Positions 17,371-63,200 of a stretch of 64,000 bases of DNA are shown here, piece by piece. Both the position numbers and the translations under genes were made by a program. The stretch's first letter is position 1; the number at the start of each line of letters is the position of its first letter. The notes beneath the pieces are model-generated. The model was not told the DNA's origin. It did not search any database and worked only from the letters and a program-made list of their open reading frames with translations. Source of the stretch: Tubulanus polymorphus (lineage: Eukaryota > Animalia > Nemertea); contig NC_134026.1 in assembly GCF_964204645.1 (NCBI RefSeq), positions 248,001 through 312,000 of the forward strand. The letters run 5' to 3'.

Positions 17371-18224
17371 CCGTGGTGTCTTATCAAAACTACGCCGTAA
17401 AATACTCAAAGCGATTACAATATCAGAATTGAAAAGACCACTGACTACTTGACAAATTATGTAAATAGAACTAAAACGTTCATTTGAACATTATTCAATA
17501 TAGTAAATAATCTAAAAGCAAGGTAAATAGAAACCGCGTAAGAATCGATTGAGCTTTTTTACTCCGAAAAACAGACGCCAGTTTGGATCTGAGACCGGTG
17601 GAAAATCGATTTGTTCTATAGTCAATTTACGTAGCGACGTAAGACTAGTCTTAAGGTTTTTAAACCACTTTTGGATAAAGTTACGACTTGCGACACTTCA
17701 CATCATTTACATCCCCAACTTTCATGTATTCAGTTGAAATCAGTGCTAAGCTCAGCGCCATGCGAAAGGAAGGACTTCGAGTTGCAAAAATTCACCAAAA
17801 AAACTTTTTATTTCTGGTAATAATCGAAAAGTTACAATATAGAGGTAGTGATGACAAGCCTCGATAATCAACATCATGAAGTGACGAGAGATCATGGATC
17901 GTGTATATATATACATATATAAACAGACTAGATTAGGTTATGGTAGAATAGCCCGTACACTCAGACGTGGAGAATAGAAACAATGATATATATTTAAAGA
18001 ATTAGAAACGAATCCTTTTTTTATCAATAATTAGAATAAAAAACGATTGGGACTCTCTTGGAGACCATCGTCGGGTGTGGCTGACAACGGTCTCCAGAGA
18101 ACAGTCCGAAAAGTCCATTTCTATTTAAAGTCTTGATAAAGAAAAATTAGTTTTTTCAATCTTTTAAATGTGTATAAAGTTAGGATTATAACCTGCTTAT
18201 AGATTCAGCAATGATGTAATAGAT

Positions 18225-18838
18225 CAGCTGGACGGTGGCGCTGGTCTGGAGGGACAGTCTGTTAACTGCAGTGTTCAGCTGGACGGTGTCGATGGTCTGG
18301 AGGGACAGTCTGTTAACCGCAGTGTTCAGCTGGACGGTGGCGCTGGTCTGGAGGGACAGTCTGTTAACTGCAGTGTTCAGCTGGACGGTGTCGATGGTCT
18401 GGAGGGACAGTCTGTTAACTGCAGTGTTCAGCTGGACGGTGTCGATGGTCTGGAGGGACAGTCTGTTAACTGCAGTGTTCAGCTGGACGGTGTCGATGGA
18501 CTGGAGGGACAGTGTCTGTTAACTGCAGTGTTCAGCTGGACGGTGTCGATGGTTTGGAGGGACAGTCTGTTAACTGCAGTGTTCAGCTGGACGGTGTCGA
18601 TGGTCTGGAGGGACAGTCTGTTAACTGCAGTGTTCAGCTGGACGGTGTCGATGGTCTGGAGGGACAGTCTGTTAACTGCAGTGTTCAGCTGGACGGTGTC
18701 GATGGTCTGGAGGGACAGTCTGTTAACCGCAGTGTTCAGCTGGACGGTGTCGATGGTCTGGAGGGACAGTCTGTTAACTGCAGTGTTCAGCTGGACGGTG
18801 TCGATGGTCTGGAGGGACAGTCTGTTAACCAGTGTTTA
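18225..18838. repeat. 51-bp minisatellite, 12 copies
   Basis: Unit CAGCTGGACGGTGTCGATGGTCTGGAGGGACAGTCTGTTAACTGCAGTGTT starting at 18225, 18276, ... 18788; one unit has a 2-nt insertion. Confidence 0.97.
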
Positions 18839-21870: not shown

Positions 21871-23130
21871 TATGGTTGAATATTTGTCCACCCTCGAGCT
21901 CTGTGTCTGTCATCTCGGGAGTTGAAGAAGCTAATGCTTTTCAAACCTGTGGCGACAAATTCGAAGACACCGGTTTTTTTCCGTGTAATAGGGTTATAGT
22001 TAGGTTAAGTCATTAGAGATTCATTGGGGACATATTCATCCATTTGGGATACCTAAACTCCAGTCGCGCCCTGATTTTGGTCCTTAAACTGCCGGATGTT
22101 CCGGGCGTCCTATATTCATGAAACATGTTGTCCGGTTTAGTTGTCGTTGTCGCGTGACGGAGGCGTCAGAAGTCAACCAGGGATTGCAGAGCTAAGCCAT
22201 CGATTTAAATGTTACAACATTTATTATCACATATAACACAAAACACAAAGCGTATATAACAGGTATTAAATAATTTTCTGACGGAATCAAGTGAATCCAG
22301 GAAACCAATTTGATACTGCGTATATATCATGACATTTGACTTCGTAGACTAGCTGCAACTCTATGAAATCCCTGGGGCGAATCGAATTCCCAGAGCAAAT
22401 CCTAGAGGAGAACTATATACAACTGGGAACTGTGAGCGAGTAATAACCGTAAATAGCCAGTTCTAAATTGAATAGTTCTGAATACAAAAATTATCCTCTT
22501 TATGTATTTTTGATACAACCTAATACAATATGAAATCCAAATCCATATCAAATCTATATACATGAAAACATTAGACACACTTAAATAAAACAAACACATC
22601 AAACAAATTTAACACCACACATAAAGACAAAAAGGATTCAATCGCCAACAGTCGTCATGTCGACGTCACGAATGTTGTTCGTCAATCGAGGTTTAGCGCC
22701 GGCAGCGAAATGAAAATATTGAAATACTATCTTATAGAAAAGGAACAATGATTAAAGTCGGATTTCGTTGATGGATTTTCTGTGTTATGGCGCTGATTTT
22801 TCACTGTCATTCGAGTCAACTTTATTGATGTCTATGAGATTGCATTCAGTGTATCATAGATACCGCATCGTATTGAGGATCACTATTCACAAGCTTCAAT
22901 TAGCATATGACAGCTATTAATGAAATAACTTTTGAAAAAAATAATTCATATCTCCGGGAACCGCTGCGAGAGTCGTTGTCGTTTTGAATTTTATTTCGAC
23001 AATTCGACTTTTATTTAATGATGAAGCACAAGTTATAAGCAACCAAGGTTAAAAAAGAGTAAAAAGAGAAAAGAGTAAAAAGACTAAGAAAGGGAGGCTG
23101 GAAATATAAAATCATTTCACCAGCTTTTGC

Positions 23131-26100
23131 TCAATCACGGACTATTGGAAAGTCAGTAAACTTTTTAACGTCGTATTCTTTGTTTGAGATTCCAAACCGT
23201 TCGCAAAGTTTCAACAATTTTTCTTTCGCTTCTTCTAAATTATCAGTTTTAACGCCTAAATGACAAATCGGTCTTTCTGTATCAGTATCGACAACATCAT
23301 TAGCTGTACAGCATTGAATTAGGCTGAACTGAATTTCACCAGATTTGCACAATTCATTGATTTCATCAATTCGATTCCAAATATGAGAGTGAACTGATTG
23401 TAAACAAATAACACCTACGAGTTGTCCACTAGGGGCAGGTTTGTAGATGTGAGGCTTCACTGCGCACGCGCACATGAACACACATCTCAGTAAATCAACT
23501 CTGTAACATTCCTTTATCCAATCCCTCACGTAAAATCCTGCCATTCGAGCATTTATTTCGATCAGTTTCGGTCCTAATGATGTCATCATGAACCCTACGC
23601 TAGAACTTCCACTAGTCAAACCTATTGTCAAACAGCATTGGTAAGCAGCGGAGATCAGCTGTGTTATCTTATCTGGAGGTAAGCATGATGGCATACATGC
23701 TCCCGTTTCAACGCAACTTCCGTCTCTAGTTGGACCAAGGTCAGACAGAAACGCTGCGATCAACTGACGTTTATACATAACTATATCCACATTGTGTTCC
23801 GTTCCTTCTAGAAACGGCATCATCATCATACTAGTTCCAAAACTTATCCCAATTCCAGGTAAATCTTCTTCTGAGCTCAGTTTCTTTTGTACAAGATTGA
23901 AATAAGTTTTAGATTCGTTTTTATTTTGAACGCGTTTAGCTCCTACTGAAGCTGCTCCGAATTCACGTTTGATGATACAAGGAAACGACATTGAAGCCTC
24001 GTCTATGTCACGTTCGGTTTCTATTTCGACGCTTTTTTCGGCGTAAATTCGCGCTTGAGGAAAATGTTTATATTCGCTACGACTTTGGAAAAGAGTTTTT
24101 TGTGTCGATGATTTTTTCTTAGCGATTCTACAACCATTCAGACCGGAACCGTTCAGAGATAACAACTCACAAATGTGAGCGCACAAACGAATGCAGTCTT
24201 CCCAGATTGTACAACAACCATCTATTTTTAGACGACAATTAGCGAGTATTTTGCTGATATTGATGGCGTGTTGCTCGTCTCGAGTGTGATCCGTAAAGTC
24301 ATAATCGATAAATCGGGTTACATCTGGAATGTCATGTGACTTGCGGTCAACAAGAATGATCTAAAACATAGAAGGTACCAGTGTATATTAATCCATTAAT
24401 GAAGGTATTTATACTAGAAAACCTCATTTGAAATATATTATGCGTGGATCTGCTTTTACCTTTAAATTATCTTGTTTAGCTGCAGCCCACATGAATGCTT
24501 TACTTGGACCTCCTTTCGCTATCACAACTATCACTTTACCCCACATCGTATATAGTTGAGATCTTTCACACATCCTCTCAACCAATGGAATCACTGATGT
24601 TCCTGGATTCAGGTCGGTAGATGCACGTAATGGATCGCTGACCAAACTCTTTAAACAGCTTTTAACCCCGATCCCGATAGGACAGTAGCGACCATCGCGT
24701 TTTACCAAGATGAAGTCAGCAGCTACAAAAACAATACACAATTCAAACCTTTGTCTAAATGAAATACACATATAATAAAATGGCTTTAGTGTTTCTTACC
24801 TATAAAATCTGTTTGTGTTTGGTCATTTTCATTATTATTCTCCTGTTTAATTATCTCTCGTAGCAAGTTTTCCGAGTCGTTTTTCAGTTGTTTTTTAATT
24901 CTATCTATTTCTGATGTTTCTACACCCCACTGTAGTAGAGTCGTTTCTATCGATTGTGCTGTTGTATTATCGCTGGTGATTGGCTCGTTTATGCGACCGA
25001 CTCTACATATGAAACCCGTGGCGATTGGTTGATCACAGTGCCCTCTACATGCGATAACTCGAACTCGGAAAGATAGATTATTTACTCCATCAGCTGCTGA
25101 AAGGAATTTCATTTATTGAACTTCTAAAAGCTTATAATCCATAAATCATTTACATGTTCATTCGACATACCTGTTGGACCTGGTTGATAGAATCGTTCTA
25201 TTAATACATAATCTCCCGGCTCAGACCGCGACAGTAAAGTGACAGCCTTGTTACAGATATTGTCCTGATCAGAATCACTATGGATAGAAACTTGTTCCTT
25301 GTGACCCGTTGCTATTCCGAATTTTCTCACCGAAATCTTTGTTAAAAAAATTCAGAAAAATCTCCTATAGAATTCACCAATACATCGATAAATTTAGAAC
25401 GTCTAGATACGACAGAAATTACCTTGTCATTCGAGGAATCGAGATGTTGCAGAAATCTTCGTATATTTTCACTAACCACATTCTTCAAGTCAGTTTTTAT
25501 ATCTATTTCCTGTATCTCTACACAAACATCTCCCGGTATATCGTATTTATGAGGAACGTAGTTACATAATGCTAATGATTCAGGGCAACTAATTCCTGCT
25601 TTACACATTAAAATACGTGTCCAAATCTTGTCATCTAGTTTCCTATTGATCGAACTCGATGTCGGACAATCTAAATCATACTTGAAATCTGCAATTCCCG
25701 GTTCATCGTCGCTAAAATTATTCATCAAATAAGTCACCCTCCTCGGTGGATCGAATACATCGAGAAAACTCGCACCGCCGTTGTACATCGATATCGCTTT
25801 ATGCAGCAAGATCGTCTTTAACGCAGGATTTCGATCACTTAGTTTTATTGACAGCCAAGAAGTCGATAAAACGAGATGTACATTACCCGCACATGATTGG
25901 CCACCTTGCAGTAGTACAGGCATACATTCGACGGGTGATGATAGAATAACGATATTTATACCTGTTTCTGGTAGTTTTGTTCTGGGTATTATCGTACGAT
26001 CCTCAGTTTCTGGATGGTTTGTTTCATACAGCGTGTATTGTAGAATGTTATAATAGTGTTTAACACGTTGTCTTTCATCATCAGACATTCGCTGCTGATC

Positions 26101-26280
26101 GGAATTTAAAGATTCGAGATTCACATCCTGGTTCCATTCGCAGTAAGGTATTTCATTCAGCGCTGAAGACATTTCGATGTTTGATTTGAACAGATTGATG
26201 CAGATACTATAATGGTCGTTGATGTAAGAAACTCACTCACAGCGGTCGTGATCTTTCAGCTGAACTTTACTAACTGTCAT
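23131..26280 (-). CDS. CARNS1: Carnosine synthase 1-like ATP-grasp ligase, copy A (~911 aa; exons 26241-26280, 25423-26162, 25171-25336, 24800-25096, 24460-24722, 23131-24360)
   Basis: All introns are GT-AG and phase-consistent. Motifs match CARNS1: ILQYTLYET, ILSSPVEC, DCPTSSS, DFTDHTRDEQHA, GCCTIWEDC, KREFGAASVG, GIGISFG, EGTEHNVD, SDLGPT, ETGACMP, GPKLIEINARM.GFY. An alternative start at ATG 26172 is possible. Confidence 0.88.
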
Positions 26281-26350
26281 TAACAGTCACCACGCAGATC
26301 CTTAAGTCTGATTAAGGTCTTTTGAAAAAAGTTATTGAATCATCTCACTT

Positions 26351-26545
26351 CAGTCATTAGCTTACAGTACTCTAAAGTTTACCGTCTTTTTTACACGGTT
26401 TGCTTCCCTTCCGTGACCACACATTTCATTAAAGATAAAGCTCTTTTATATTTGAACCCAGACACATATTATATATTCTATATTATTTTCGAGGTTGTCT
26501 GGAACTTAAAAGTATTCATTCTGCAAGGTTAGATAGAACATAATT
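26351..26545 (+). repeat. Dispersed ~200-bp repeat, copy 2 (copy 1 at 17157-17370)
   Basis: Direct sequence match to 17157-17370. Confidence 0.8.
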
Positions 26546-26580
26546 ATATGTATATTGTATTTATTTCGTCAAAGTCATTT

Positions 26581-27047
26581 GGGGAGCGTTCTAATAGTAC
26601 GTACGACCTTAGGGGGAGTGGGGTAAAGAAATAATGTACTAACTTCGTATGGGGAGAGAGAGGTGGGGGTTAAAGAATAATGTACGTACTTTTCTGGTAG
26701 GGGGGTCTCTCAAACAAATGTACGTACTTAATGGACGAGAGATATCCAAAATTACGTCAAACATATGTCTGAGACAAAATGAATTACTGTTAACCGATCC
26801 TTATCTCATGAAATCCTTAGTTAATACTAGCCTATATAGTAAGTGAAGTGAAGGCAGGTCAAAAGTGCTATTAAGTTGGATTAAGTGTCATGTTATGTCT
26901 AATTTGTTGATTTGAGGGAGAGGGGTCTTTCAAAATGTACGTACGGGTCGGGGGTGGGGGTTAATGAAATAAGTACCAAGATCGTACAAGGCGGGGGGGG
27001 TCTAAAAAACGGTAAAACTGGCTGTAAGTACTATTTTAACGCTCCCT
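26581..27047. mobile_element. MITE / non-autonomous DNA transposon
   Basis: Left GGGAGCGTTCTAATAGTACGTAC versus rc of right end GGGAGCGTTAAAATAGTACTTAC; subterminal G-runs and GTACGTAC repeats on both sides. Confidence 0.75.
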
Positions 27048-27149
27048 ATAATACTTGTATATGACAATCTTTCATTGATTTTACAGTTGGCGTTTTTCCT
27101 CGAAATATACAGACATATCTTTTACATTTAAGTTACCCTAGGAAGGAAT

Positions 27150-27554
27150 TTCCGTCCCTTAAACGTCTGTAAAAGGAATTTTGCAATGCGCTTTAAGAGA
27201 TTGTTGGAGGTTGTGTTCATCAAATCTATGAATTTATAATGCTCGGATTATTCCAATAGTATCGGGGAATGAAATTGCTTCTCGGGGTGTTATAGTGGAT
27301 ACAGCATAGTAAAACGTGGTACTCGTCTTCGATTTGATTCGGGTTACAGCTACACAAAAGGTTTTCGCGTGGGATCCGTGGCCTGGTCCATCTACCACTT
27401 TCTATCATAAGGTCGTAGCTTCCACAGCGGGATTTACTGAAAGTATTTACTAAACAAGGGTCACTAATATCAAGTAATCTCTCGTAGGTAAAAGAAGATT
27501 TTAGGTGCTTATAGATATAACATTTGCGGCTAGTTTCAATAGAGTGAAACCAGT
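27150..27554 (-). mobile_element. Non-LTR retrotransposon (CR1/L2-group-like) ORF2 3' fragment, downstream part
   Basis: Translates NWFHSIETSRKCIYYKHLK...MIESGRWTRPRIPRENLLCSC...IEDEYHVLLCC, the typical C-terminal Zn-finger-like tail of these LINEs. Confidence 0.8.
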
Positions 27555-29248
27555 TGATCCGCAGCTGAATTGTACTTTACAGTTGCGTTTAGGCGTAGGC
27601 CTGGAGATGTATGTATCAGTGTTTTGTTAGTAATGCAGTCAGCCAGTGTTAATGGTGTTGTCCCTCTTGCGAAAATCGTTATACTCACGGACTTGTGATA
27701 ACTCCTTGGGGACAAAACACCTGGCTGCATGCAAGAAATCGTGAAATTCGCCGACGACATTTGCGTTAAACCGATCTAAATGGCGGATGTATGAACTCGA
27801 TGTTCCAGCGCGCCGTATTCAGCTTCGTTGTGGTATTTTCAACTCGTATGTTGCGATATAAACTGTGGAGAAGTTATAGACTCCTGTATCGTAAATCTGG
27901 TTCTACGTTGAAGCCATTGATATTGCGTGTTTTCGCGCTGGATGGTGTATTATTAGGCTGCGAGGAACTGCGTTGGATAACGTCATTCGTCCGTCCATGG
28001 CGTACTGTGTTGTTGTGGTTGCTGTTGAGTCTTCATGCGGTATATTTTCAAACTTCGTAATTGCGGTGGTGTTAAGTGCTAGACTTTTTACGGTATTAGC
28101 GGAGGCAGCGGTCTCAAGATACTTTCATTTTCCGAGCGGGTATCCTGAACTTTAATTTGTGGTTTTGTTGAACTGTAATCCTGAACTTTTAGTGCGTGTT
28201 ATTACTATGAACTTTAACGAGTAGTTTTAGAATATGGTCTAGTTAATATCTTTGGGGAAAAAGACGCGATTTGGCGTTTTTCATCCGTTTGTTGCTGTTT
28301 TCTTTTTCAGGGTTTTTCATGAGGTGTCGGCTTGTGTTTCAGAGGTTGTCTAAATTCAAAATTTCGGGACGAAATTTTAAGCTGAGTGGGGAGTGATGAT
28401 CCGCAGCTGAATTGTACTTTCAAAAAGATCAAACGATTAATATACGTAGGTTTCTTGGCATGTCCTGGGAGAACACACGCATTGTTCCTTATGTACGATA
28501 ATACATTATCCGCCTTAATGGTTGTTTGTCTGAAACATTTATACTTGTATCAGACGAGCATTCTAAATCACTTTGAAGGTAATCACGGGGCTGTAGTCAT
28601 GAGAAGAATTCGTGGAAATGAGCAATTATGAAATCAACTTATGAAACACTCGCTGACCCTTAGTCTGATAATTCGATAATAAGGAGTTATATTAAAGAGT
28701 AATATTAAAAAGTAATATTAAAGAGTTTTATTATTTTAATTGATAAGGGTTTGTGTGTTTAAATTTGAATGTACTAATAATGTTAAAGAATATAAATAAG
28801 AAAGATGATATTTCGGCTTACATTGTATACTACTATTTAGACAAAATTAAATACCATTCATTGTGGGAATTGTAATCATTGGATTAGTTAAAATAAATGA
28901 GTTCGAGGGTTGGAAAAATAGTATATATGTAATCTCTTCGGTGCGGTTGAGAAGGAGAGCAGACCGGCAGGTATCCTGACGTCGAGGGTCGGGTTAAAGT
29001 TAGCAGCGAATGAAAAGTCTAGGAATCAGGACCCCAGCTCTGCGTCGTGGTGCTGCGTTGGTTGCTCGTTCCCTTTTACGGCTGGCCGCAAGCAGGGTTC
29101 TGGATTTTTCTTGGGTGTGGACGCAGCCGTATAAAAGGGGCCGCACCTCGAGAGAGAGCGGACTCTTTTAGAAAGCATTCGACTTTCTCGCCAGGGACCG
29201 GAGTTTGTAATAGAGGAAAAAGACAATAGAGAAAGGGACCGCGGAACA
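27555..29248 (+). mobile_element. Internally deleted Gypsy-type LTR retrotransposon (25-bp stub of 5' LTR, 3' internal region, PPT, 3' LTR 28397-29248)
   Basis: TG...CA termini (TGATCCGCAG / CCGCGGAACA) and 4-bp TSD CAGT (27551-27554, 29249-29252). TGATCCGCAGCTGAATTGTACTTT is repeated at 27555 and 28397. AATTTCGGGACGAAATTTT plus purine tract GAGTGGGGAGTGA lie just before 28397; TATAAAA at ~29130. Confidence 0.8.
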
Positions 29249-29420
29249 CAGTTTTGGATAAATATTGATCTTTGAGTCTTTGCTCGACAAGTTTTATAGG
29301 AAAGGTGGCATTTCCTGCATCCTGGGAAATCCAAAAATGACCAAGACCTAAATCATTAAATAAATCACGCATTTTGGATGCCCAATTAGATATGAGAGGG
29401 TTGTTATTCATCTGATTCAG
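29249..29420 (-). mobile_element. LINE ORF2 fragment, upstream part of the element split by the LTR insertion
   Basis: Translates NWASKMRDLFNDLGLGHFW...VEQRLKDQ.(F)IQN and joins the 27554 fragment across the CAGT TSD. Confidence 0.75.
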
Positions 29421-29511
29421 GAGATGAATGACCCAGAAATGCCACTAGTCATAACCTATTGTCAAACGACACTTTTTGTTGCATGGTCGTTGATGTAAGA
29501 AACTCACTCAC

Positions 29512-29551
29512 ATCGGTCGTGATATTTCAGCTGAACTTTAGAAACTGTCAT
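29512..29551 (-). CDS. Duplicate / alternative first coding exon of CARNS1-like copy A (MTVSKVQLKYHDR + phase-1 GTGAGT donor)
   Basis: Paralogous to exon 26241-26280 (MTVSKVQLKDHDR) with the same length, phase and donor; flanks also similar. Confidence 0.55.
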
Positions 29552-30550
29552 TAACAGTCACCACGCAGATACTTCAAACTGCTTCAGTCTTGTGAGAAAG
29601 AATTATTGAATTACCTCAAATACACTTAAGGTTTGTCATTAATTTTTCTTCTACTCAAAATATCTACTTAAAACCTACGTTGCGATTGTCTACTTGAAAA
29701 GGGAATTGAACTTATAATCGCTTTGATCGATATTTTGGATAGTTAGTGTTCATTGGAATAAAAAAGTTTTTGGTGAAGAGAGTTTGTGAAATGAGCGCTT
29801 GTTAAAAAGTTATATTGAAAGTTCACTGTTTTTTTTTTGAGCATGTAATCGTTGACTTGTTCAGTAGGTACAAGGTTCCATTGACATCAAAACACGCGAG
29901 AGTTGTATATAAGCTCGGCGTGCTGATACTGCAAGATTTAGTGTCAGTAAAAAGCCGATAAGTTGTGACCAATTATTTATATCTTCATATAAAGTTATAT
30001 GATCCTTCCACGCCGGGATTCGAACCCGGTGGCATCGCGACCATACCGTATCGCTATAGGAAACCATGCGTAAAGCCCCAGCACACATTTATTTGCACAA
30101 CTGCTGCCCAGATTTCCATGATTCAAATCATTTCGAATTCGATAATGAACCAAAATATATTGCAAAACAGTATTCGTAAATAAATATGATTCCTCTTTAT
30201 GCCGGGAGAGGCAGCTATAAAACAATACATTGAAAAGAAATTTATTGCTTTTATCGGAATTAGAATCTTAAGTAGAAAAGACAAAATTCCGTGTTTAAAT
30301 TTCAAAATATCGATTTACACGGTTTGCTGCTTGCTGAAAGCTGTTTTAACATAAATTTTTACTGCTTTAGCATAAAACTCAACAAATCCATAGGTCATCA
30401 AGACTTTCCCTTCGACACCTGCCGCCACTGTGATCGATAATTCCTATACTGCCATCGCTGACAAGCATTATGTGAAATACTGTAAGATCCGGTGACGTGT
30501 TAACTACAGATGTTTATCAACTGTAAGTGCCTGATAGTGTCATTAGAAAT

Positions 30551-33500
30551 ATGGATGGTAATCGTTTAGATCAGTCTCAGGAGGTAAGTATCAGAGGCAA
30601 ATCGTGTAACATGTCGTGTTCCAAACCTCAAAGCCCATATGGCATTAGTCATGATTAGTCATATCCATTAATGCATGTACAAAAAAATGCGTACATAAAG
30701 TTTAATTTGTTTGGATTTCGGCGGCTCTTAATTTTTGATTACCGGGATATTTGACCACCGAGCACCACTCAGTCCAAGGGCCTTTCTCCTATTTTAGGGA
30801 AATTCATACTCGAAAATCATATCTGTATCTTATTTAGAATAAATGGGAAATAATCAAGACTTGTGAAGATGCCACCCTGAATGGAATCCCTTACTGCGAA
30901 TGGAACCAGGATGTGAATCTCGAATCTTTAAATTCCGATCAGCAGCGAATGTCTGATGATGAAAGACAACGTGTTAAACACTATTATAACATTCTACAAT
31001 ACACGCTGTATGAAACAAACCATCCAGAAACTGAGGATCGTACGATAATACCCAGAACAAAACTACCAGAAACAGGTATAAATATCGTTATTCTATCATC
31101 ACCCGTCGAATGTATGCCTGTACTACTGCAAGGTGGCCAATCATGTGCGGGTAATGTACATCTCGTTTTATCGACTTCTTGGCTGTCAATAAAACAAAGT
31201 GATCGAAATCCTGCGTTAAAGACGATCTTGCTGCATAAAGCGATATCGATGTACAACGGCGGTGCGAGTTTTCTCGATGTATTCGATCCACCGAGGAGGG
31301 TGACTTATTTGATGAATAATTTTAGCGACGATGAACCGGGAATTGCAGATTTCAAGTATGATTTAGATTGTCCGACATCGAGTTCGATCAATAGGAAACT
31401 AGATGACAAGATTTGGACACGTATTTTAATGTGTAAAGCAGGAATAAGTTGCCCTGAAACATTAGCATTATGTAACTACGTTCCTCATAGATACGATATA
31501 CCGGGAGATGTTTGTGTAGAGATACAGGAAATAGATATAAAAACTGACTTGAAGAATGTGGTTAGTGAAAATATACGAAGATTTCTGCAACATCTCGATT
31601 CCTCGAATGACAAGGTAATTTCTGTCGTATCTAGACGTTCTAAATTTATCGATGAATTGCTGAATTCTATAGGAGATTTTTCTGAATTTTTTTAACAAAG
31701 ATTTCGGTGAGAAAATTCGGAATAGCAACGGGTCACAAGGAACAAGTTTCTATCCACAACGGTTCTGATCAGGAGAATATCTGTAACAAGGCTGTCACTT
31801 TACTGTCGCGGTCTGAGCCGGGAGATTATGTATTAATAGAACGATTCTACAACACACATCAGACTGGTATGTCGAATACATGCATTACGTTGCTTATAGG
31901 CTTTATTATAGGCACATCATATATCCATAATCATTCACTGTAGTGTTATGAAGAGTATTGACTTATGATTTGTTGACGTGTGATTTGTTGATTTTGTAGC
32001 AGCTGCAGGACGGAATCATCTGTCTTTCCGAGTTCGAGTTATCGCGTGTAGAGGGCGCTGTGATCAACCAATCACCACAGGTTTCATATGTAGAGTCGGT
32101 CGCATAAACGAGCCAATCACCAGCGATAATACAACAGCACAGTCGATAGAAACGACTCTACTACAGTGGGGTGTAGAAACATCAGAAATAGATAGAATTA
32201 AAAAGCAACTGAAAAACGATTCGGAAAACTTGCTACACGAGATAATTAAACAGGAGAATAATAATGAAAATGACCAAACACAAACAGATTTTATAGGTAA
32301 GAAACACTAAAGCCATTTTATTATATGAGTATAAATCAGCCCTACTTCATTTAAAGACAAAGGTTTGAATTGTGTATTGTTTTTGTAGCTGCTGACTTCA
32401 TCTTGGTAAAACGCGATGGTCGCTACTGTCCTATCGGGATCGGGGTTAAAAGCTGTTTAAAGAGTTTGGTCAGCGATCCATTACGTGCATCTACCGACCT
32501 GAATCCAGGAACATCAGTGATTCCATTGGTTGAGAGGATGTGTGAAAGATCTCAACTATATACGATGTGGGGTAAAGTGATAGTTGTGATAGCGAAAGGA
32601 GGTCCAAGTAAAGCATTCATGTGGGCTGCAGCTAAACAAGATAATTTAAAGGTAAAAGCAGATCCACGCATAATATATTTCAAATGAGGTTTTCTAGTAT
32701 AAATACCTTCATTAATGGATTAATATACACTGGTACCTTCTACGTTTTAGATCATTCTTGTTGACCGCAAGTCACGTGACATTCCAGATGTAACCCGATT
32801 TATCGATTATGACTTTACGGATCACACTCGAGACGAGCAACACGCCATCAATATCAGCAAAATACTCGCTAATTGTCGTCTAAAAATAGATGGTTGTTGT
32901 ACAATCTGGGAAGACTGCATTCGTTTGTGCGCTCACATTTGTGAGTTGTTATCTCTGAACGGTTCCGGTCTGAATGGTTGTAGAATCGCTAAGAAAAAAT
33001 CATCGACACAAAAAACTCTTTTCCAAAGTCGTAACGAATATAAACATTTTCCTCAAGCGCGAATTTACGCCGAAAAAAGCGTCGAAATAGAAACCGATCG
33101 TGACATAGACGAGGCTTCAATGTCGTTTCCTTGTATCATCAAACGTGAATTCGGAGCCGCTGCAGTAGGAGCTAAACGCGTTCAAAATAAAAACGAATCT
33201 AAAACTTATTTCAATCTTGTACAAAAGAAACTGAGCTCAGAAGATGATTTACCTGGAATTGGGATAAGTTTTGGAACTAGTATGATGATGATGCCGTTTC
33301 TAGAAGGGTCTCGACATGGAGTTGATATAGTTATGTATAAACGTCAGTTGATCGCAGCGTTTCTGTCTGACCTTGGTCCAACTAGGGAAGGGTATCTAAC
33401 GGGAACTGGGGTTACGATGCCATCATGCTTACCTCCAGATAAAATAACACAGCTGATCTCCGCTGCTTATCAATGTTGTTTGACAATAGGTTTGACTAGT

Positions 33501-33974
33501 GGTGTTTTTAATGTCGACATTGTGCTGACATCGATGGGTCCGAAACTGATCGAAATAAATGCTCGAATGGGAGGATTTTACGTGAGGAATTGGATAAAGG
33601 AATGTTACAGAGTTGATTTACTGAGATGTGTGTTCATGTGCGCCTGCGCAGTGAAGCCTCACATCTACAAACCTGCCCCTAGTGGACAACTCGTAGGTGT
33701 TACTTGCTTACAATCAGTTCACGCTCATATTTGGAATCGAATTGATGAAATCAATGAATTGTGCAAATCTGGTGAAATTCAGTTCAGCCTAATTCAATGC
33801 TGTACAGCTGATGATGTTGTTGATACTGATACAGAAAGACCGATTTGTCATTTAGGCGTTAAAACTGATAATTTAGAAGAAGCGAAAGAAAAATTGTTGG
33901 AACTTTGCGAACGGTTTGGAATCTCAAACAAAGAATACGACGTTAAAAAGTTTATTGATTTTCCCCAAGTCTAA
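30551..33974 (+). CDS. CARNS1: Carnosine synthase 1-like ATP-grasp ligase, copy B (~919 aa; exons 30551-30583, 30838-31614, 31701-31866, 32000-32296, 32389-32651, 32751-33974)
   Basis: Inverted near-identical paralog of copy A with phase-consistent GT-AG introns. First exon MDGNRLDQSQE ends in GAG|GTAAGT. Motifs KREFGAAAVG, SDLGPT, GVFNVD, GPKLIEINARMGGFY. Confidence 0.88.
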
Positions 33975-34898
33975 ACACTGAGATTAAATGTATTCAAGTT
34001 TTTTTCTAGATTTCATGCTAATTGTTGTTTTTATGAATTTATCATTAAACATAGAATTTCTTATTATTAAATAAAGAAGTGTCTAGTTTGATGTGTTACA
34101 GTCGTTTCTTTACGAATCCACTTAAAAAAACATGTGTAAGACGATTCAATTGAAAAAAAATCATAAATTCAAATATGAAATGCATAATTTTCATAACTTG
34201 CTATAATTTCTTTCTGAATACAGATCTAATCATGAAAATTGGTTTTTAACGATATCCCAAACGAATATCGTATTTTCCTTGATACTGGTGTCTATCATGA
34301 TTATCATGAATTTTATGATTAAAGGTTTACGAATTATTTGAATGTGATAAATGTCACGTCAAAATGAGTATAAAAACATTTCAAATAACATCCTGTATTT
34401 TCTTTATACAATCATGAAAACGATTTTTTAAAGTTTGAGTTTATGCACGTGGTTTACAGCGATCATTACTATAACAAGCAGCTGTAAAACTGATGGCAAA
34501 GGTCTTGAAGTTCATTTACTGCGAGTGAGCCCCAGCGGTACGTTCCGTTCTAAAACAATCGAAAAATATTACCGCAAATAGGCGTTTGGCTGCGAGGCAA
34601 TTTAGAAATGATGGACGACAAACCTCAGGGAAAACCGCAGTAATGATCGCTTAATGCATCTCCCGTCAAGAAACAAATTGCCTTCAGTCTCTCTGCATCT
34701 CACAGCTTCGCGTGAACGCGAAATTGTCTTGCAAAATAAGAAACTGATCCCGCTTTACACAAGTCATATTTGCAGGTTGTAATGAGGATCTCTGTCGTGA
34801 CGAAAATGGAGATCCCAATGAAAGGATTGTTGGAGTTCCCAAAGACAAACCCTTGAATTAGCCCAATCATTATTTTGTATAGTTAAAACCTAGACACC

Positions 34899-35059
34899 AG
34901 GACCCGTTTCCACGGTAGTGAGTTTAGAGTTGGCGCTTTAGTTAACGTTACCTCAGAATCCAGCTCCTAATTGTGCGTTAGTTGTGAGTTAGAATCAGAT
35001 CATTTTCAATTCTTAACTCTAGATTCGAATTAAACTCAGACTCGTGGAACTGGATCCTG
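34899..35059. mobile_element. MITE, CAGGA.CC.GTT(T)CCAC...GTGGAACTGGATCCTG family
   Basis: Imperfect TIR. Related ends at ~37060-37080, 39690-39770, 42543-42605, 59983-60097 and 61090-61218. Confidence 0.55.
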
Positions 35060-46640: not shown

Positions 46641-50295
<3,655 letters not shown>

Positions 50296-50544
50296 CTTAT
50301 CGTTCAGTTTATAATGAACTATGAATGTTTGATATTATATTCCAGAATGAGTTGATATGAGAGAGCGAGAGAGACGCGCTGAAGTGAATAAACCAACTGC
50401 CACAGCGGTTTCACTTGTAATAACAATCATTCGGACACTGTTAAACCTGATATCACATTCGCGCGCAGCTCGTGATGAGTTTATGCATTAAGTAAATTAC
50501 CCGGCAGTATTTTTTTCATTAGAACACCATTTGCGTTAAAGACG

Positions 50545-60268: not shown

Positions 60269-63200
60269 TTAACACTCAGTGTTGTTGTCAGTCAGACTAG
60301 ATTCTGTATTGCGATCATTATCACTCCTCGTTGCTGCTGTCTCCTCTCCCTCTCTTTGTCCTTGTTGTTCTTCCTCTTCGGGTTTAGGTTCCGGACGAAC
60401 TTCGTCAGTAGCCAACTCGACGGCTGCGCCATCTGGCGGATTTCCCGCGTCGGGGATATTCGACAGAAATGTGAACTGCGTCACGACGGAGAGTTGACTG
60501 CCGTGAAGCATGGCTTCTTCAATCGCCTGCTCGTAAGTGGGAGGAGGGGTCATTCTCCTGCCGCGGCGGAAGTTAGGCGGACCAGCCGGAAATATGGTCC
60601 GGTAACTCGGTGGGCGGCCGAATCGAGAGAAAAACGCCGACAGGGACGAATCGCGTCTGTTTCGGCGACCGCGATGACTGACATTCTCGGATATAGTTTC
60701 TAAATGATTAGTACTCGCGTATTGGTCATCATCACGTGGTCTAGTGTTTGGTGAACGGGTGCGATATATAGCCACACTTATACCTACTATAATCGCCATA
60801 CACACCACACATCCTGTAACACCTCCCGCTATTTTGATCGTACTGTCATTGGGTTTACCTGCGAAATAAAACAATGCTGTATGAAATAAGTATCGAAAAC
60901 AATTTACAGAATCTAAAAATTACGCCACCCTAACCCTTCAATATTTCTGGAATTTTTTTCAGCTTCTTAAATGAAGCCCACTTGACCATTTTGAATGTAA
61001 AACAAAATTTCCAATTGTATTTTTATAAAATGATATTCAAATTATTTGTGAAAATATCTAGTAGTTACAGAGATACGATCAAAGCTATCCAGGCTCCAGT
61101 TTCACGAAACTCATTTTTTTAAATTTTATTGCTATTGTTTACTTGATATCGTCAATGAGGACAACGGTTCAAACTTAACTGATTAAAGCTTTAAACTTGT
61201 TCATGAAACTGGACTCAGGGCCCGGTTGCACGTTTGCGACTAAGCCCAAAAGTAGTCTTAAGTTTAGACTTCCTAAATGATATTTATAATCAAGATGGTC
61301 TCAGACTGGTCTTCAATCTAAGACATGCCTGTACAACATGAGCTGTATCAATAAACATTATACCTTTATCATTTGTACCAGAGCCTGATTTATCTTCATC
61401 TGTACAGTCTTTATTGAAGGGCGATTCGTCAGTTTTATCTCCACAGTCATTAGTTCCGTCGCAGACTAAACTCTGGAAGACGCACTTGCCGTTATGACAT
61501 CGGTAGAAGTGAGAATTCGGGCAGGGTGGATAGGCTATCGTGAATAGAAAGCAAAAACTTGGTTTTTATCGAAGTGATTTAGATAAACATTAAGCCTTGC
61601 GACCGCCTGTACGTTCGTCGCAGACTCGCCGCCCTACGCGCCCATGGGACTATACCAGTGACGCCAGTTGCAACAAGCTTTGCATGTTCTCAATGTTTTA
61701 CTTTCGGCGACGCGACCTTTTCTCTTTTTAGTCACAACCCTGATAGACGCTGCTTTTGCAAAAGACAAACACAGTGTCACGAGCGACAGACACGCCCTTG
61801 CATCAGAGGAATCCATTTGGGTTCAGTTGCCATGGACCGCATCGCATCAACCCACACCCGCCCTCTATACATGAATGCATGGTGGCGTCGCAAGTCAACC
61901 CATACCCGCCTTCTATACATGAATACATGGCAGTGGCGGATTTAGCCTACCGCACTTGCCGCTAATGCGGTAGTCAACATTTTTCCTCTAACAACATTTT
62001 ATTTATTTCATGGATGGATTTGACTTAGCTGATTCCTTGGAAAAAGTACCCATATTAAAACAGGATTTAAAATCCCCCGTAGGCACGTCGTGCCTTCGGC
62101 ACTCGTATTGCACATCTCGTGCCTTCGGCACTCGGTTGCCGAAAATGCGGTAGTCATATTATGCTTCTGGATCCACCACTGCATGGTGGCGTCGCAAGTC
62201 AACCCACACCCGCCCTCTATACATGAATACATGGTGACTGTACTGTAAGGGTTAACGATAATTCCTGCATCCCGCGGATTTCGACAGTTAATTTATGACG
62301 ATGAACAAAACGGATGTAAAATATATAGTCGCATGCGATGGTTGTACTTAATGGTAACTCACCGATGCCACTACAGGGGGCGTTGCGAATATGAATCTCA
62401 TCGAGACCTAAACCATATCTATTATACTTTTTGTATATCTGTCTAAGTTCGAACACAATCTGAAATATTAAATTGAAATCAACATTATATTTCAGTCTCT
62501 GAATAGTTACATTGACAAAATGTTGTGAAATACTGATGAAAAATAACTTAGTAAAGTTAAGACCCTCGAAAATGTTTCTACAAAACACACTTTTGATATT
62601 AGTTTATCGCTTGTTCGTGACGATAGAAAATATAAGTTTCCAAGAATTAGTTACCAGGAATTGATAAGCGGACGGTACAAAGCTGACAGAAACTTTAATC
62701 CAACGTGAATCACTGGAAGGTATTTTCCAATTTGTAAGAAATTTCAGCGACATTTTATCCGCATCATCGCCTCGTGAACCTTCATAGACGCTTAACTTAG
62801 TCATCTGATTTCGAATATTCGCATTCGTGAACCAAAAATCTAAACATTTCCAGCCTTTATCCCACGTACGGATGATCGGTGTACTGATGACAATTTCTCG
62901 GGGATAGGGACCCATCGTTAACAAATAATGACCCATCTTAGTACCATCTGTAAAATAACAAAACGAACATTAATCTTTTGGACGATTAACTATTTCTTAA
63001 GCCGGTAAATTCAACAAATATAGTTTCAGACTTTTTAGAGATTATGATCTATTTACATTAAGAGTGAACAAGGAAGTGGTTAGATTACGGTATGTCCTAT
63101 ATTTTCTTCATTATTTAAATCATGATTTCAAAAATGCTCTCTATCACGGGACTTTCCATATTTCCTTTATTATTTACATCATGATTTCAAAAATGCTCGC

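Follow-up and report, generated by a model that had tools for sequence, protein, structure and literature searches.

How do two neighbouring genes whose proteins are ~94% identical come to concentrate their differences in the predicted pocket of the encoded enzyme? The question is raised by a window of 64,000 nucleotides from the nemertean Tubulanus polymorphus (NC_134026.1, positions 248,001 to 312,000 of the forward strand; coordinates below are those of the window), in which two CARNS1-like genes, denoted A (minus strand) and B (plus strand), are arranged head to head and are both intact. In a DNA self-comparison they form inverted homology arms (23147-25098 versus 31998-33964 at 95%, and 25153-26160 versus 30877-31882 at 98%), so that A and B are 95-98% identical overall, three introns included. 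The explanation that we favour, with moderate confidence, is that A and B encode ligases that differ in their acyl-donor pockets, and that they are old duplicates under gene conversion in which selection holds three short patches apart. On sequence grounds, A and B probably join different substrates, and their products are probably not carnosine. Functional divergence had been proposed in an earlier note on this DNA; it is still the best reading, with added support from synonymous saturation in the patches and from the recurrence of the B-type change.

Three patches of residue differences

The region shared by the two proteins (A residues 5-896) contains 47 residue differences, 18 of which fall in three patches in the last coding exon. 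This exon (23131..24360 on the minus strand in A, with a Pfam ATP-grasp_4 match at E 1.1e-6; 32751..33974 on the plus strand in B) encodes most of the C-terminal ATP-grasp domain of the L-amino acid ligase (LAL) type. Within it, A 679-754 accounts for 18 of the 30 residue differences (permutation p = 5e-5, 76-codon window). The three patches described in the earlier note were confirmed at their coordinates, as was the difference between RMAGF in A and RMGGF in B. The near-identity of the first large exon was confirmed too: three differences had been counted there, and its shared part (A 5-250) has four, or three without the edge residue 7.

Conservation was scored in an alignment of 62 homologs out of 66 protein-search matches, the four weakest being left out. 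The CARNS1 consensus given in the earlier note (EGTEHDVD, ET, N-x-E, RMGGF) was recovered in this alignment, with E680 in 62/62, D682 in 59/62, E710 in 57/62, N746 in 61/62, E748 in 61/62, and G766 in 62/62 homologs. In patch 1 (A, 23788..23805, minus strand, residues 678-683; B, 33306..33323, plus strand), A keeps E680 and carries D682N, and B has E-to-R and D-to-G changes. In patch 2 (A, 23695..23727, minus strand, residues 704-714; B, 33384..33416, plus strand), A keeps E710 and is close to the paralog P0001 (XP_074649117.1), and B has an E-to-G change at this position with further changes around it. In patch 3 (A, 23572..23610, minus strand, residues 743-755; B, 33501..33539, plus strand), A has S-S-S in place of V-F-N together with E748G, and B keeps V-F-N with an E-to-D change. 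A departs from the family at D682, V744, F745, N746, E748, and G766, and B at T679, E680, D682, E710, and A713, with Asp at 748. N700L is common to both copies (Asn in 59/62 homologs), and neither retains in full the pocket set conserved in canonical carnosine synthase (EC 6.3.2.11), namely E680, D682, N700, E710, N746, E748, and G766.

Conserved columns are affected by 9/18 patch differences compared with 5/29 elsewhere (p = 0.024), and islands placed at random across the entire coding sequence match this level of conservation with p = 0.018. A fourth island of divergence surrounds intron 2 (A 301-312, seven differences), and a small extra island is located at A 270-275.

Divergence islands and probable gene conversion

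Synonymous divergence (pS) is 0.82 in patches 1-3 compared with 0.032 in the background, and among codons for the same residue 11/12 differ inside the patches compared with 17/824 elsewhere. With strict borders, drawn from the first to the last residue change to remove the bias of choosing edges, the counts are 6/7 and 24/812 (p = 1e-8). Patches 1-3 contain no insertions or deletions (indels) and have identical tracts on both sides; a stretch of 62 unchanged bases, with 20 identical codons, lies between patches 1 and 2, and the longest identical A/B tracts reach 388 bp. Introns 1, 3, and 4 differ between A and B by two bases, one base plus a gap, and one base, respectively; divergence is much higher in intron 2. 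The flanks of the two genes align no better than shuffled sequences, and homology ends inside the coding ends. Given the saturated synonymous sites in the patches, the near-identical introns, and the unalignable flanks, A and B are probably old duplicates in which conversion has homogenised the gene bodies.

If A and B had duplicated recently and positive selection had then acted rapidly at the pocket, gene conversion playing no part, this would account for the high DNA identity and its extension through three introns. However, positive selection on residues does not saturate the synonymous sites inside the patches, nor does this scenario agree with the unalignable flanks and with an intron 2 far more diverged than the others. 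It is largely refuted already, and we give it almost no credence.

A and B show the pattern of Teshima-Innan peaks, in which paralogs of low divergence have local maxima that extend to synonymous sites, and such peaks are a published signature of selection against conversion (available parts of PMC2588116 and PMC3924837). The terminal and intron-2 islands are explicable by edges and indels, but patches 1-3 are not, since they lack indels and patches 1 and 2 have identical bases between them. Selection probably holds the three pocket patches apart.

Outside the patches, nonsynonymous divergence (pN) is 0.010 compared with a pS of 0.032 (p ~0.0009; pN/pS ~0.3), and neither gene has the broken frame, missing splice sites, or neutral pN/pS of a pseudogene. 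When changes outside the patches were polarised against P0001, nine were derived in A, nine were derived in B, and 11 were unresolved. Within the patches, A is ancestral-like at nine sites, B at three, and neither at six; by this comparison each copy has derived residues, though not in the same patches.

Position of the patches in the ATP-grasp fold

A profile of 53 family members was aligned to the bacterial ligase BacD, with the offset of the BacD numbering fixed by the W332A entry 3wo1. In this alignment, E710 corresponds to BacD E273, N746/E748 to H309/E311, E760 to E324, R764 to R328, and A766 to A330. The best matches in a profile search of the PDB were bacterial LALs (E 5e-22); the searched copy returned no solved CARNS1 structure, only bacterial relatives. 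The C-terminal model of B, with a mean predicted local distance difference test (pLDDT) score of 92, matches BacD 3vmm with a Foldseek template modelling (TM) score of 0.74. The model of A in its RefSeq form (mean pLDDT 86.5) also has LALs as its best PDB matches, and a 66-amino-acid (aa) query around A patch 3 gave no PDB match. A single ATP-grasp domain carries the patches and the E-x-N-x-R motif, on strands and a loop (E216-225, E249-252, E280-289, and E292-299 in the model). In the alignment to BacD the patches fall on active-site positions, as had been supposed.

An obligate heteromer in which A and B each supply what the other lacks would suit the reciprocal pattern of the losses, and at 94% identity any self-interface would be common to both copies. 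However, the patches and the E-x-N-x-R motif occur in one domain, onto which a single LAL chain can be superposed, so that one site would not be built from two chains. Complementation in trans is unlikely, which weakens the reciprocal rewiring that the earlier note had put forward, and we regard the heteromer as very improbable. The earlier interpretation is also weakened at the TEH glutamate (E680), which aligns with DdlB E187, taken to be a residue of the nucleotide site and not of a substrate-amine site.

Catalytic core of the two copies

The ATP-grasp core consists of two ATP-binding lysines and an E-x-N motif (available part of PMC4431377). Both A and B keep K573, K623, E760, N762, and R764, and thus have what an active ATP-grasp ligase core requires: two lysines, E-x-N, and an Arg four residues after the Glu. 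The acid on the strand before E-x-N is Asp in B and Gly in A. In the ATP-grasp core described for LdmS, Asp288 and Asp301 bind Mg, Asp288 being the strand acid (available part of PMC9486568); by analogy with LdmS and with DdlB D257, B Asp748 would be compatible with metal binding.

Precedents exist for the odd residues of both copies. E. coli PurD carries Gly 13 residues before the Glu (E-13), the same register as A G748, and the Arg-His of B matches R208-H209 of biotin carboxylase (AccC), where A and DdlB have Glu. The biotin carboxylase Arg, and with it the Glu680 position, presumably has a role at the ribose. BacD itself has Ala330 where A reads RMAGF, and RMAGF was on this ground rejected as a damaging change. 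It had been claimed that A lacks the metal-site acid and that B lacks two glutamates; these losses are real, but loss of function need not follow, given the PurD Gly and the AccC Arg-His. Neither A nor B looks dead.

In the N-terminal ATP-grasp domain, both copies read G-V-K where five mollusc-type rows have E-V-N. Rescue by this domain was rejected because its E-x-N is lost in both copies (24460-24722 in A; 32389-32651 in B), and the N-terminal domain probably cannot compensate for the C-terminal changes. The mollusc-type rows with D...E-V-N are P0005, P0006, P0007, P0012, and P0014, and mollusc-type CARNS1 may have two active sites. In the other four Tubulanus paralogs, the motif is G-V-K in three and E-V-K in the fourth. 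The loss of the N-terminal E-x-N had been missed by the earlier reading, as had the synonymous saturation in the patches, the islands at intron 2 and A 270-275, and N700L.

Recurrence of the B-type pocket

A wider set of 274 domain rows from 240 distinct proteins was used for counts, with A and B themselves left out. Among the 221 rows covering all six key sites, the triple change of B (K/R680, non-E710, D748) occurs in five, with E760 and R764 kept. Four of these rows form one clade with support 100 (P0117, P0182, P0149, and P0127), whose named members are ray-finned fish (Amia XP_066579534.1, Scleropages XP_018613161.1, and Aplochiton KAM6956632.1); the fifth row, P0171, is unplaced on the tree. 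E710 is absent from 11/15 rows with D748 compared with 48/197 rows with E748 (p = 2e-4, the rows not being independent). In a quick tree of 42 of 132 rows, chosen by hand and built without the patch columns, three changes are forced by branches with good support. Since the same triple change is found in the fish clade with the catalytic core kept, the B pocket appears to be an alternative that recurs and not a product of decay.

In the tree, A and B are sister to P0001 with a Shimodaira-Hasegawa-like approximate likelihood ratio test (SH-aLRT) value of 97, and the Tubulanus clade (100) is nested among CARNS1-like proteins. Four further CARNS1-like paralogs are annotated in T. polymorphus, with 55-77% identity. 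Of the T. polymorphus paralogs, P0002, P0003, and P0004 have pocket changes of their own (Asn or Gln at 684 and Leu at 713, with Asp at 746 in P0003), and the whole Tubulanus paralog expansion may be diversifying in specificity.

Gene models and contig support

Gene A has five coding exons on the minus strand: 25423..26172 (ATG at 26172), 25171..25336 (its 3' end within the intron-2 island), 24800..25096, 24460..24722 (with the degenerate G-V-K motif), and the last exon. It encodes 901 aa, or 900 aa if the NAGNAG acceptor of the spliced contig is used. Gene B has six coding exons on the plus strand and encodes 919 aa. The first (30551..30583) is predicted from ATG and GT donor signals only and adds 11 codons of a private N-terminus; it is followed by 30838..31614, 31701..31866, 32000..32296, 32389..32651, and the last exon. 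Both genes have GT/AG splice sites and zero internal stops. Two intact genes of ~910-920 aa had been reported, which holds for their intactness and for the length of B and is slightly high for A. RefSeq XP_074643999.1 (P0077) is identical to A, exon 1 included, over its first 880 aa, and XP_074644000.1 (P0067) is identical to the last 436 aa of B.

Contigs of five sequencing runs (X1-X5) were compared with the locus; X4 was treated as RNA-derived because its contigs skip introns, its library not being on record. Gene A is spliced: X4 contigs skip introns at A positions (joints 25093-25171 and 24360-24460), one junction carrying A-specific letters. The A-type patches are present with zero differences in an X4 contig (23358-24035), and the A 3' end is likewise matched. 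B-type patches 1-2 are present with zero differences in an X1 contig (33279-33424), and patch 3 in a neighbouring contig with three differences, none within the patch. No X4 contig covers the B-specific patches (33076-33642), and no X5 contig matched the locus; we draw no conclusion on B expression from either. Contig support for both patch types and the RefSeq protein matches show that A and B are real genes, and an assembly artefact or a haplotype or assembly duplication was excluded by the unique flanks and the contigs of both patch types.

Some details of gene A vary between sources. Past residue 880 its C-terminus differs in RefSeq, and the X4 contig continues without splicing past the stop at 23131, with zero differences (23131-23200). 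At the NAGNAG acceptor (25093-25096), the spliced contig uses the distal AG at 25093, giving one Ala fewer, and RefSeq uses the proximal AG. The X4 contig of the A 5' end has 177 further letters that match nothing in 22000-35000. Since its match begins at letter 178, at an AG site at 26300, and no joint was found in 22000-35000, the first exon of A may lie elsewhere, possibly beyond B.

Proposed functions and their alternatives

We propose that both copies would form an amide via an acyl-phosphate in the C-terminal domain, where catalysis is placed because the N-terminal domain lacks E-x-N; the acyl-phosphate route is the chemistry of the family (available part of PMC9486568). Copy A, with Glu at the BacD E273 position, would use an amino-acid donor; N746S/E748G would make its pocket wider, and its metal site would resemble that of PurD. 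Copy B, which has lost the E273-position Glu and in which the strand acid is shortened to Asp, would use a donor without an amine near the carboxylate, candidates being N-acyl amino acids, organic acids, and peptides. These assignments depend on the role of BacD E273, H309, and E311, which presumably hold the donor amino group.

A more elaborate version is a two-step peptide assembly line in which A would make a non-carnosine dipeptide and B, without the Glu that would anchor an amine, would extend or cap it. The pair would take over a step formerly performed by the N-terminal ATP-grasp domain, whose E-x-N is kept in molluscs and lost in Tubulanus. The B pocket would then mark a class of animal ligases not recognised so far, with at least two further origins, one of them in the ray-finned-fish clade. 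We consider this version speculative and quite improbable.

Several points weigh against two ligases with divergent donor pockets. The residue roles of BacD E273 and H309, and the binding of the donor amine by the ET glutamate, are presumed, and the PurD and AccC registers were anchored on motifs and are not structural superpositions. The residues of A are rare: of 229 rows of the wider set, 202 have E at position 748, 17 have D, and two have G, and S746 occurs in 2/230. The covariation counts for the B-type change are not phylogenetically independent, and the inference of three changes rests on a quick version of the tree. Random placement of the islands within the last exon alone gives p = 0.073, which is not significant, and the placement test is therefore not decisive alone. 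Protein searches and one profile-free representative search found no other nemertean with A-type or B-type patches, and so no related species with both types in which the orthologue test of the islands could be made. The RefSeq model of B covers only the last 436 aa. Finally, contigs of X2/X3 contain a B-type piece (33208-33851) that differs at 21 of 644 bases and adjoins unrelated DNA at 33208, and 19 of the 21 variants, those listed, comprise 10 nonsynonymous and seven synonymous codon changes.

The rarity of the A residues bears on the possibility that selection maintains one of the two, most likely A, as a pseudoenzyme or a weak enzyme, which would bind substrate or ATP and serve as regulator or scaffold of its partner. 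Conversion at the pocket would still be resisted, being harmful either way. A has lost the strand acid, whose counterpart Asp288 binds Mg in LdmS (available part of PMC9486568), and the preceding Asn, and it is spliced and constrained; the conversion signature needs selection, not catalysis. The pocket of A is rarer than that of B, which would make A the better pseudoenzyme candidate. However, A retains both lysines and E-x-N-x-R, and in patches 1 and 2 it has the conserved residues. Moreover, PurD has Gly at the same register, and P0134, an 863-aa homolog, has G748 with E710, E760, and R764 intact. We therefore consider a pseudoenzyme role of A rather unlikely.

The placement test and the partial B sequences bear instead on B, which might be a silent or dispensable old paralog whose frame is kept by conversion from A and whose patches are leftovers that conversion has yet to cross. 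A working A as conversion donor could keep B free of stops, and islands explained by indels or edges do occur at intron 2 and the termini. This account would also fit the partial RefSeq model and the diverged B-type piece beside unrelated DNA. However, patches 1-3 are free of indels and bordered by identical tracts, and derived changes are not in excess in B (9 versus 9). The three key changes of B match a fish clade with the catalytic core, which random decay would seldom copy, and patch 3 of A is also derived and could have been repaired by the B version. A silent B thus appears improbable. The X2/X3 contigs also join B-like sequence to unrelated DNA at 32035, 33548, 33916, and 34022, and their B-like pieces may be extra partial copies or a disrupted allele.

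Comparison with known systems

Carnosine synthase couples either beta-alanine or GABA to His, Lys, Orn, or Arg (available part of PMC6920838), and a mollusc CARNS1 homolog has been linked to carnosine (available part of PMC11591149). A and B share with the CARNS1/ATPGD1 family the two-domain ATP-grasp architecture, a length of ~900 aa, and a nested position in the family tree. They are 49-77% identical to their five closest full-length homologs, and the last exon of B is 35-51% identical to mollusc and vertebrate matches and 75% to P0001. In contrast to the family, each copy breaks several near-invariant pocket residues, with N700L in both and the N-terminal E-x-N lost. BacD/YwfE, BL00235, and RizA are the best PDB matches in sequence and fold (TM 0.74-0.76) and share the E324 and R328 positions, but identity is 15-17%, A lacks equivalents of H309/E311, and B lacks an equivalent of E273. 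E. coli PurD, biotin carboxylase, and DdlB supply the precedents of Gly at E-13, Arg-His, and Asp at E-13, respectively, but act on other substrates with very low overall identity. The fish CARNS1-like clade resembles B in its basic residue at 680, the lack of an acid at 710, Asp at 748, and the retained E-x-N-x-R, but is 32-33% identical to B and has a separate origin on the tree.

Linked near-identical duplicates with homogenised introns and peaks at functional sites have been described for exon 5 of the human red/green opsins and for a Drosophila transporter pair (available parts of PMC3924837 and PMC2588116). Unlike these, the A/B peaks span only 6-13 codons, three of them lie in one enzyme exon, and both copies are derived. 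As an example of selection holding islands of 6-13 codons against gene conversion, the A/B pair is unusually sharp. It also amounts to a natural chimera experiment, 94% alike with the concentrated differences being the three pocket patches, and three short segment swaps would map donor specificity for the CARNS1 family. Literature searches on the CARNS1 active site, invertebrate and fish paralogs, and Tubulanus, which covered few subscription papers, returned nothing on the A/B pair or the fish clade, and the fish paralogs with a B-like pocket are apparently unstudied.

Spacer and other features of the window

The ATGs of A and B are 4.4 kb apart with repeats between them. The spacer (26348..30550) is largely high-copy repeat with open reading frame (ORF) fragments and fragments that we take to be like long interspersed nuclear elements (LINE-like); summed contig depth in X1 is 195-1125 over 26774-29377 compared with 30-85 over most of the genes. 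The spacer also holds the relic of a third copy in the orientation of A (29435..29618, minus strand), 88% identical over 137 bp to 26212-26347 and located beside a LINE-like fragment. In this relic, the A 5' region adjoins a 33-bp piece in which 31/33 bases equal 23602-23633, at the edge of patch 3. The earlier suggestion that the two genes are co-expressed from a common spacer finds no support in 4.4 kb of mostly high-copy repeat and a gene relic.

ARAGORN found no tRNA in the window. An ORF at 49780-50334 (minus strand) resembles the first exon of what we take to be an Emx/empty-spiracles homeobox gene, with no Pfam match. A likely membrane-spanning exon (60269-60919, minus strand) and a weak MAM-domain match (62604-62969, minus strand; E 0.0048) perhaps belong to one receptor-like gene. 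A tandem array of ~51-bp units at 18224-18836 overlaps open frames on both strands.

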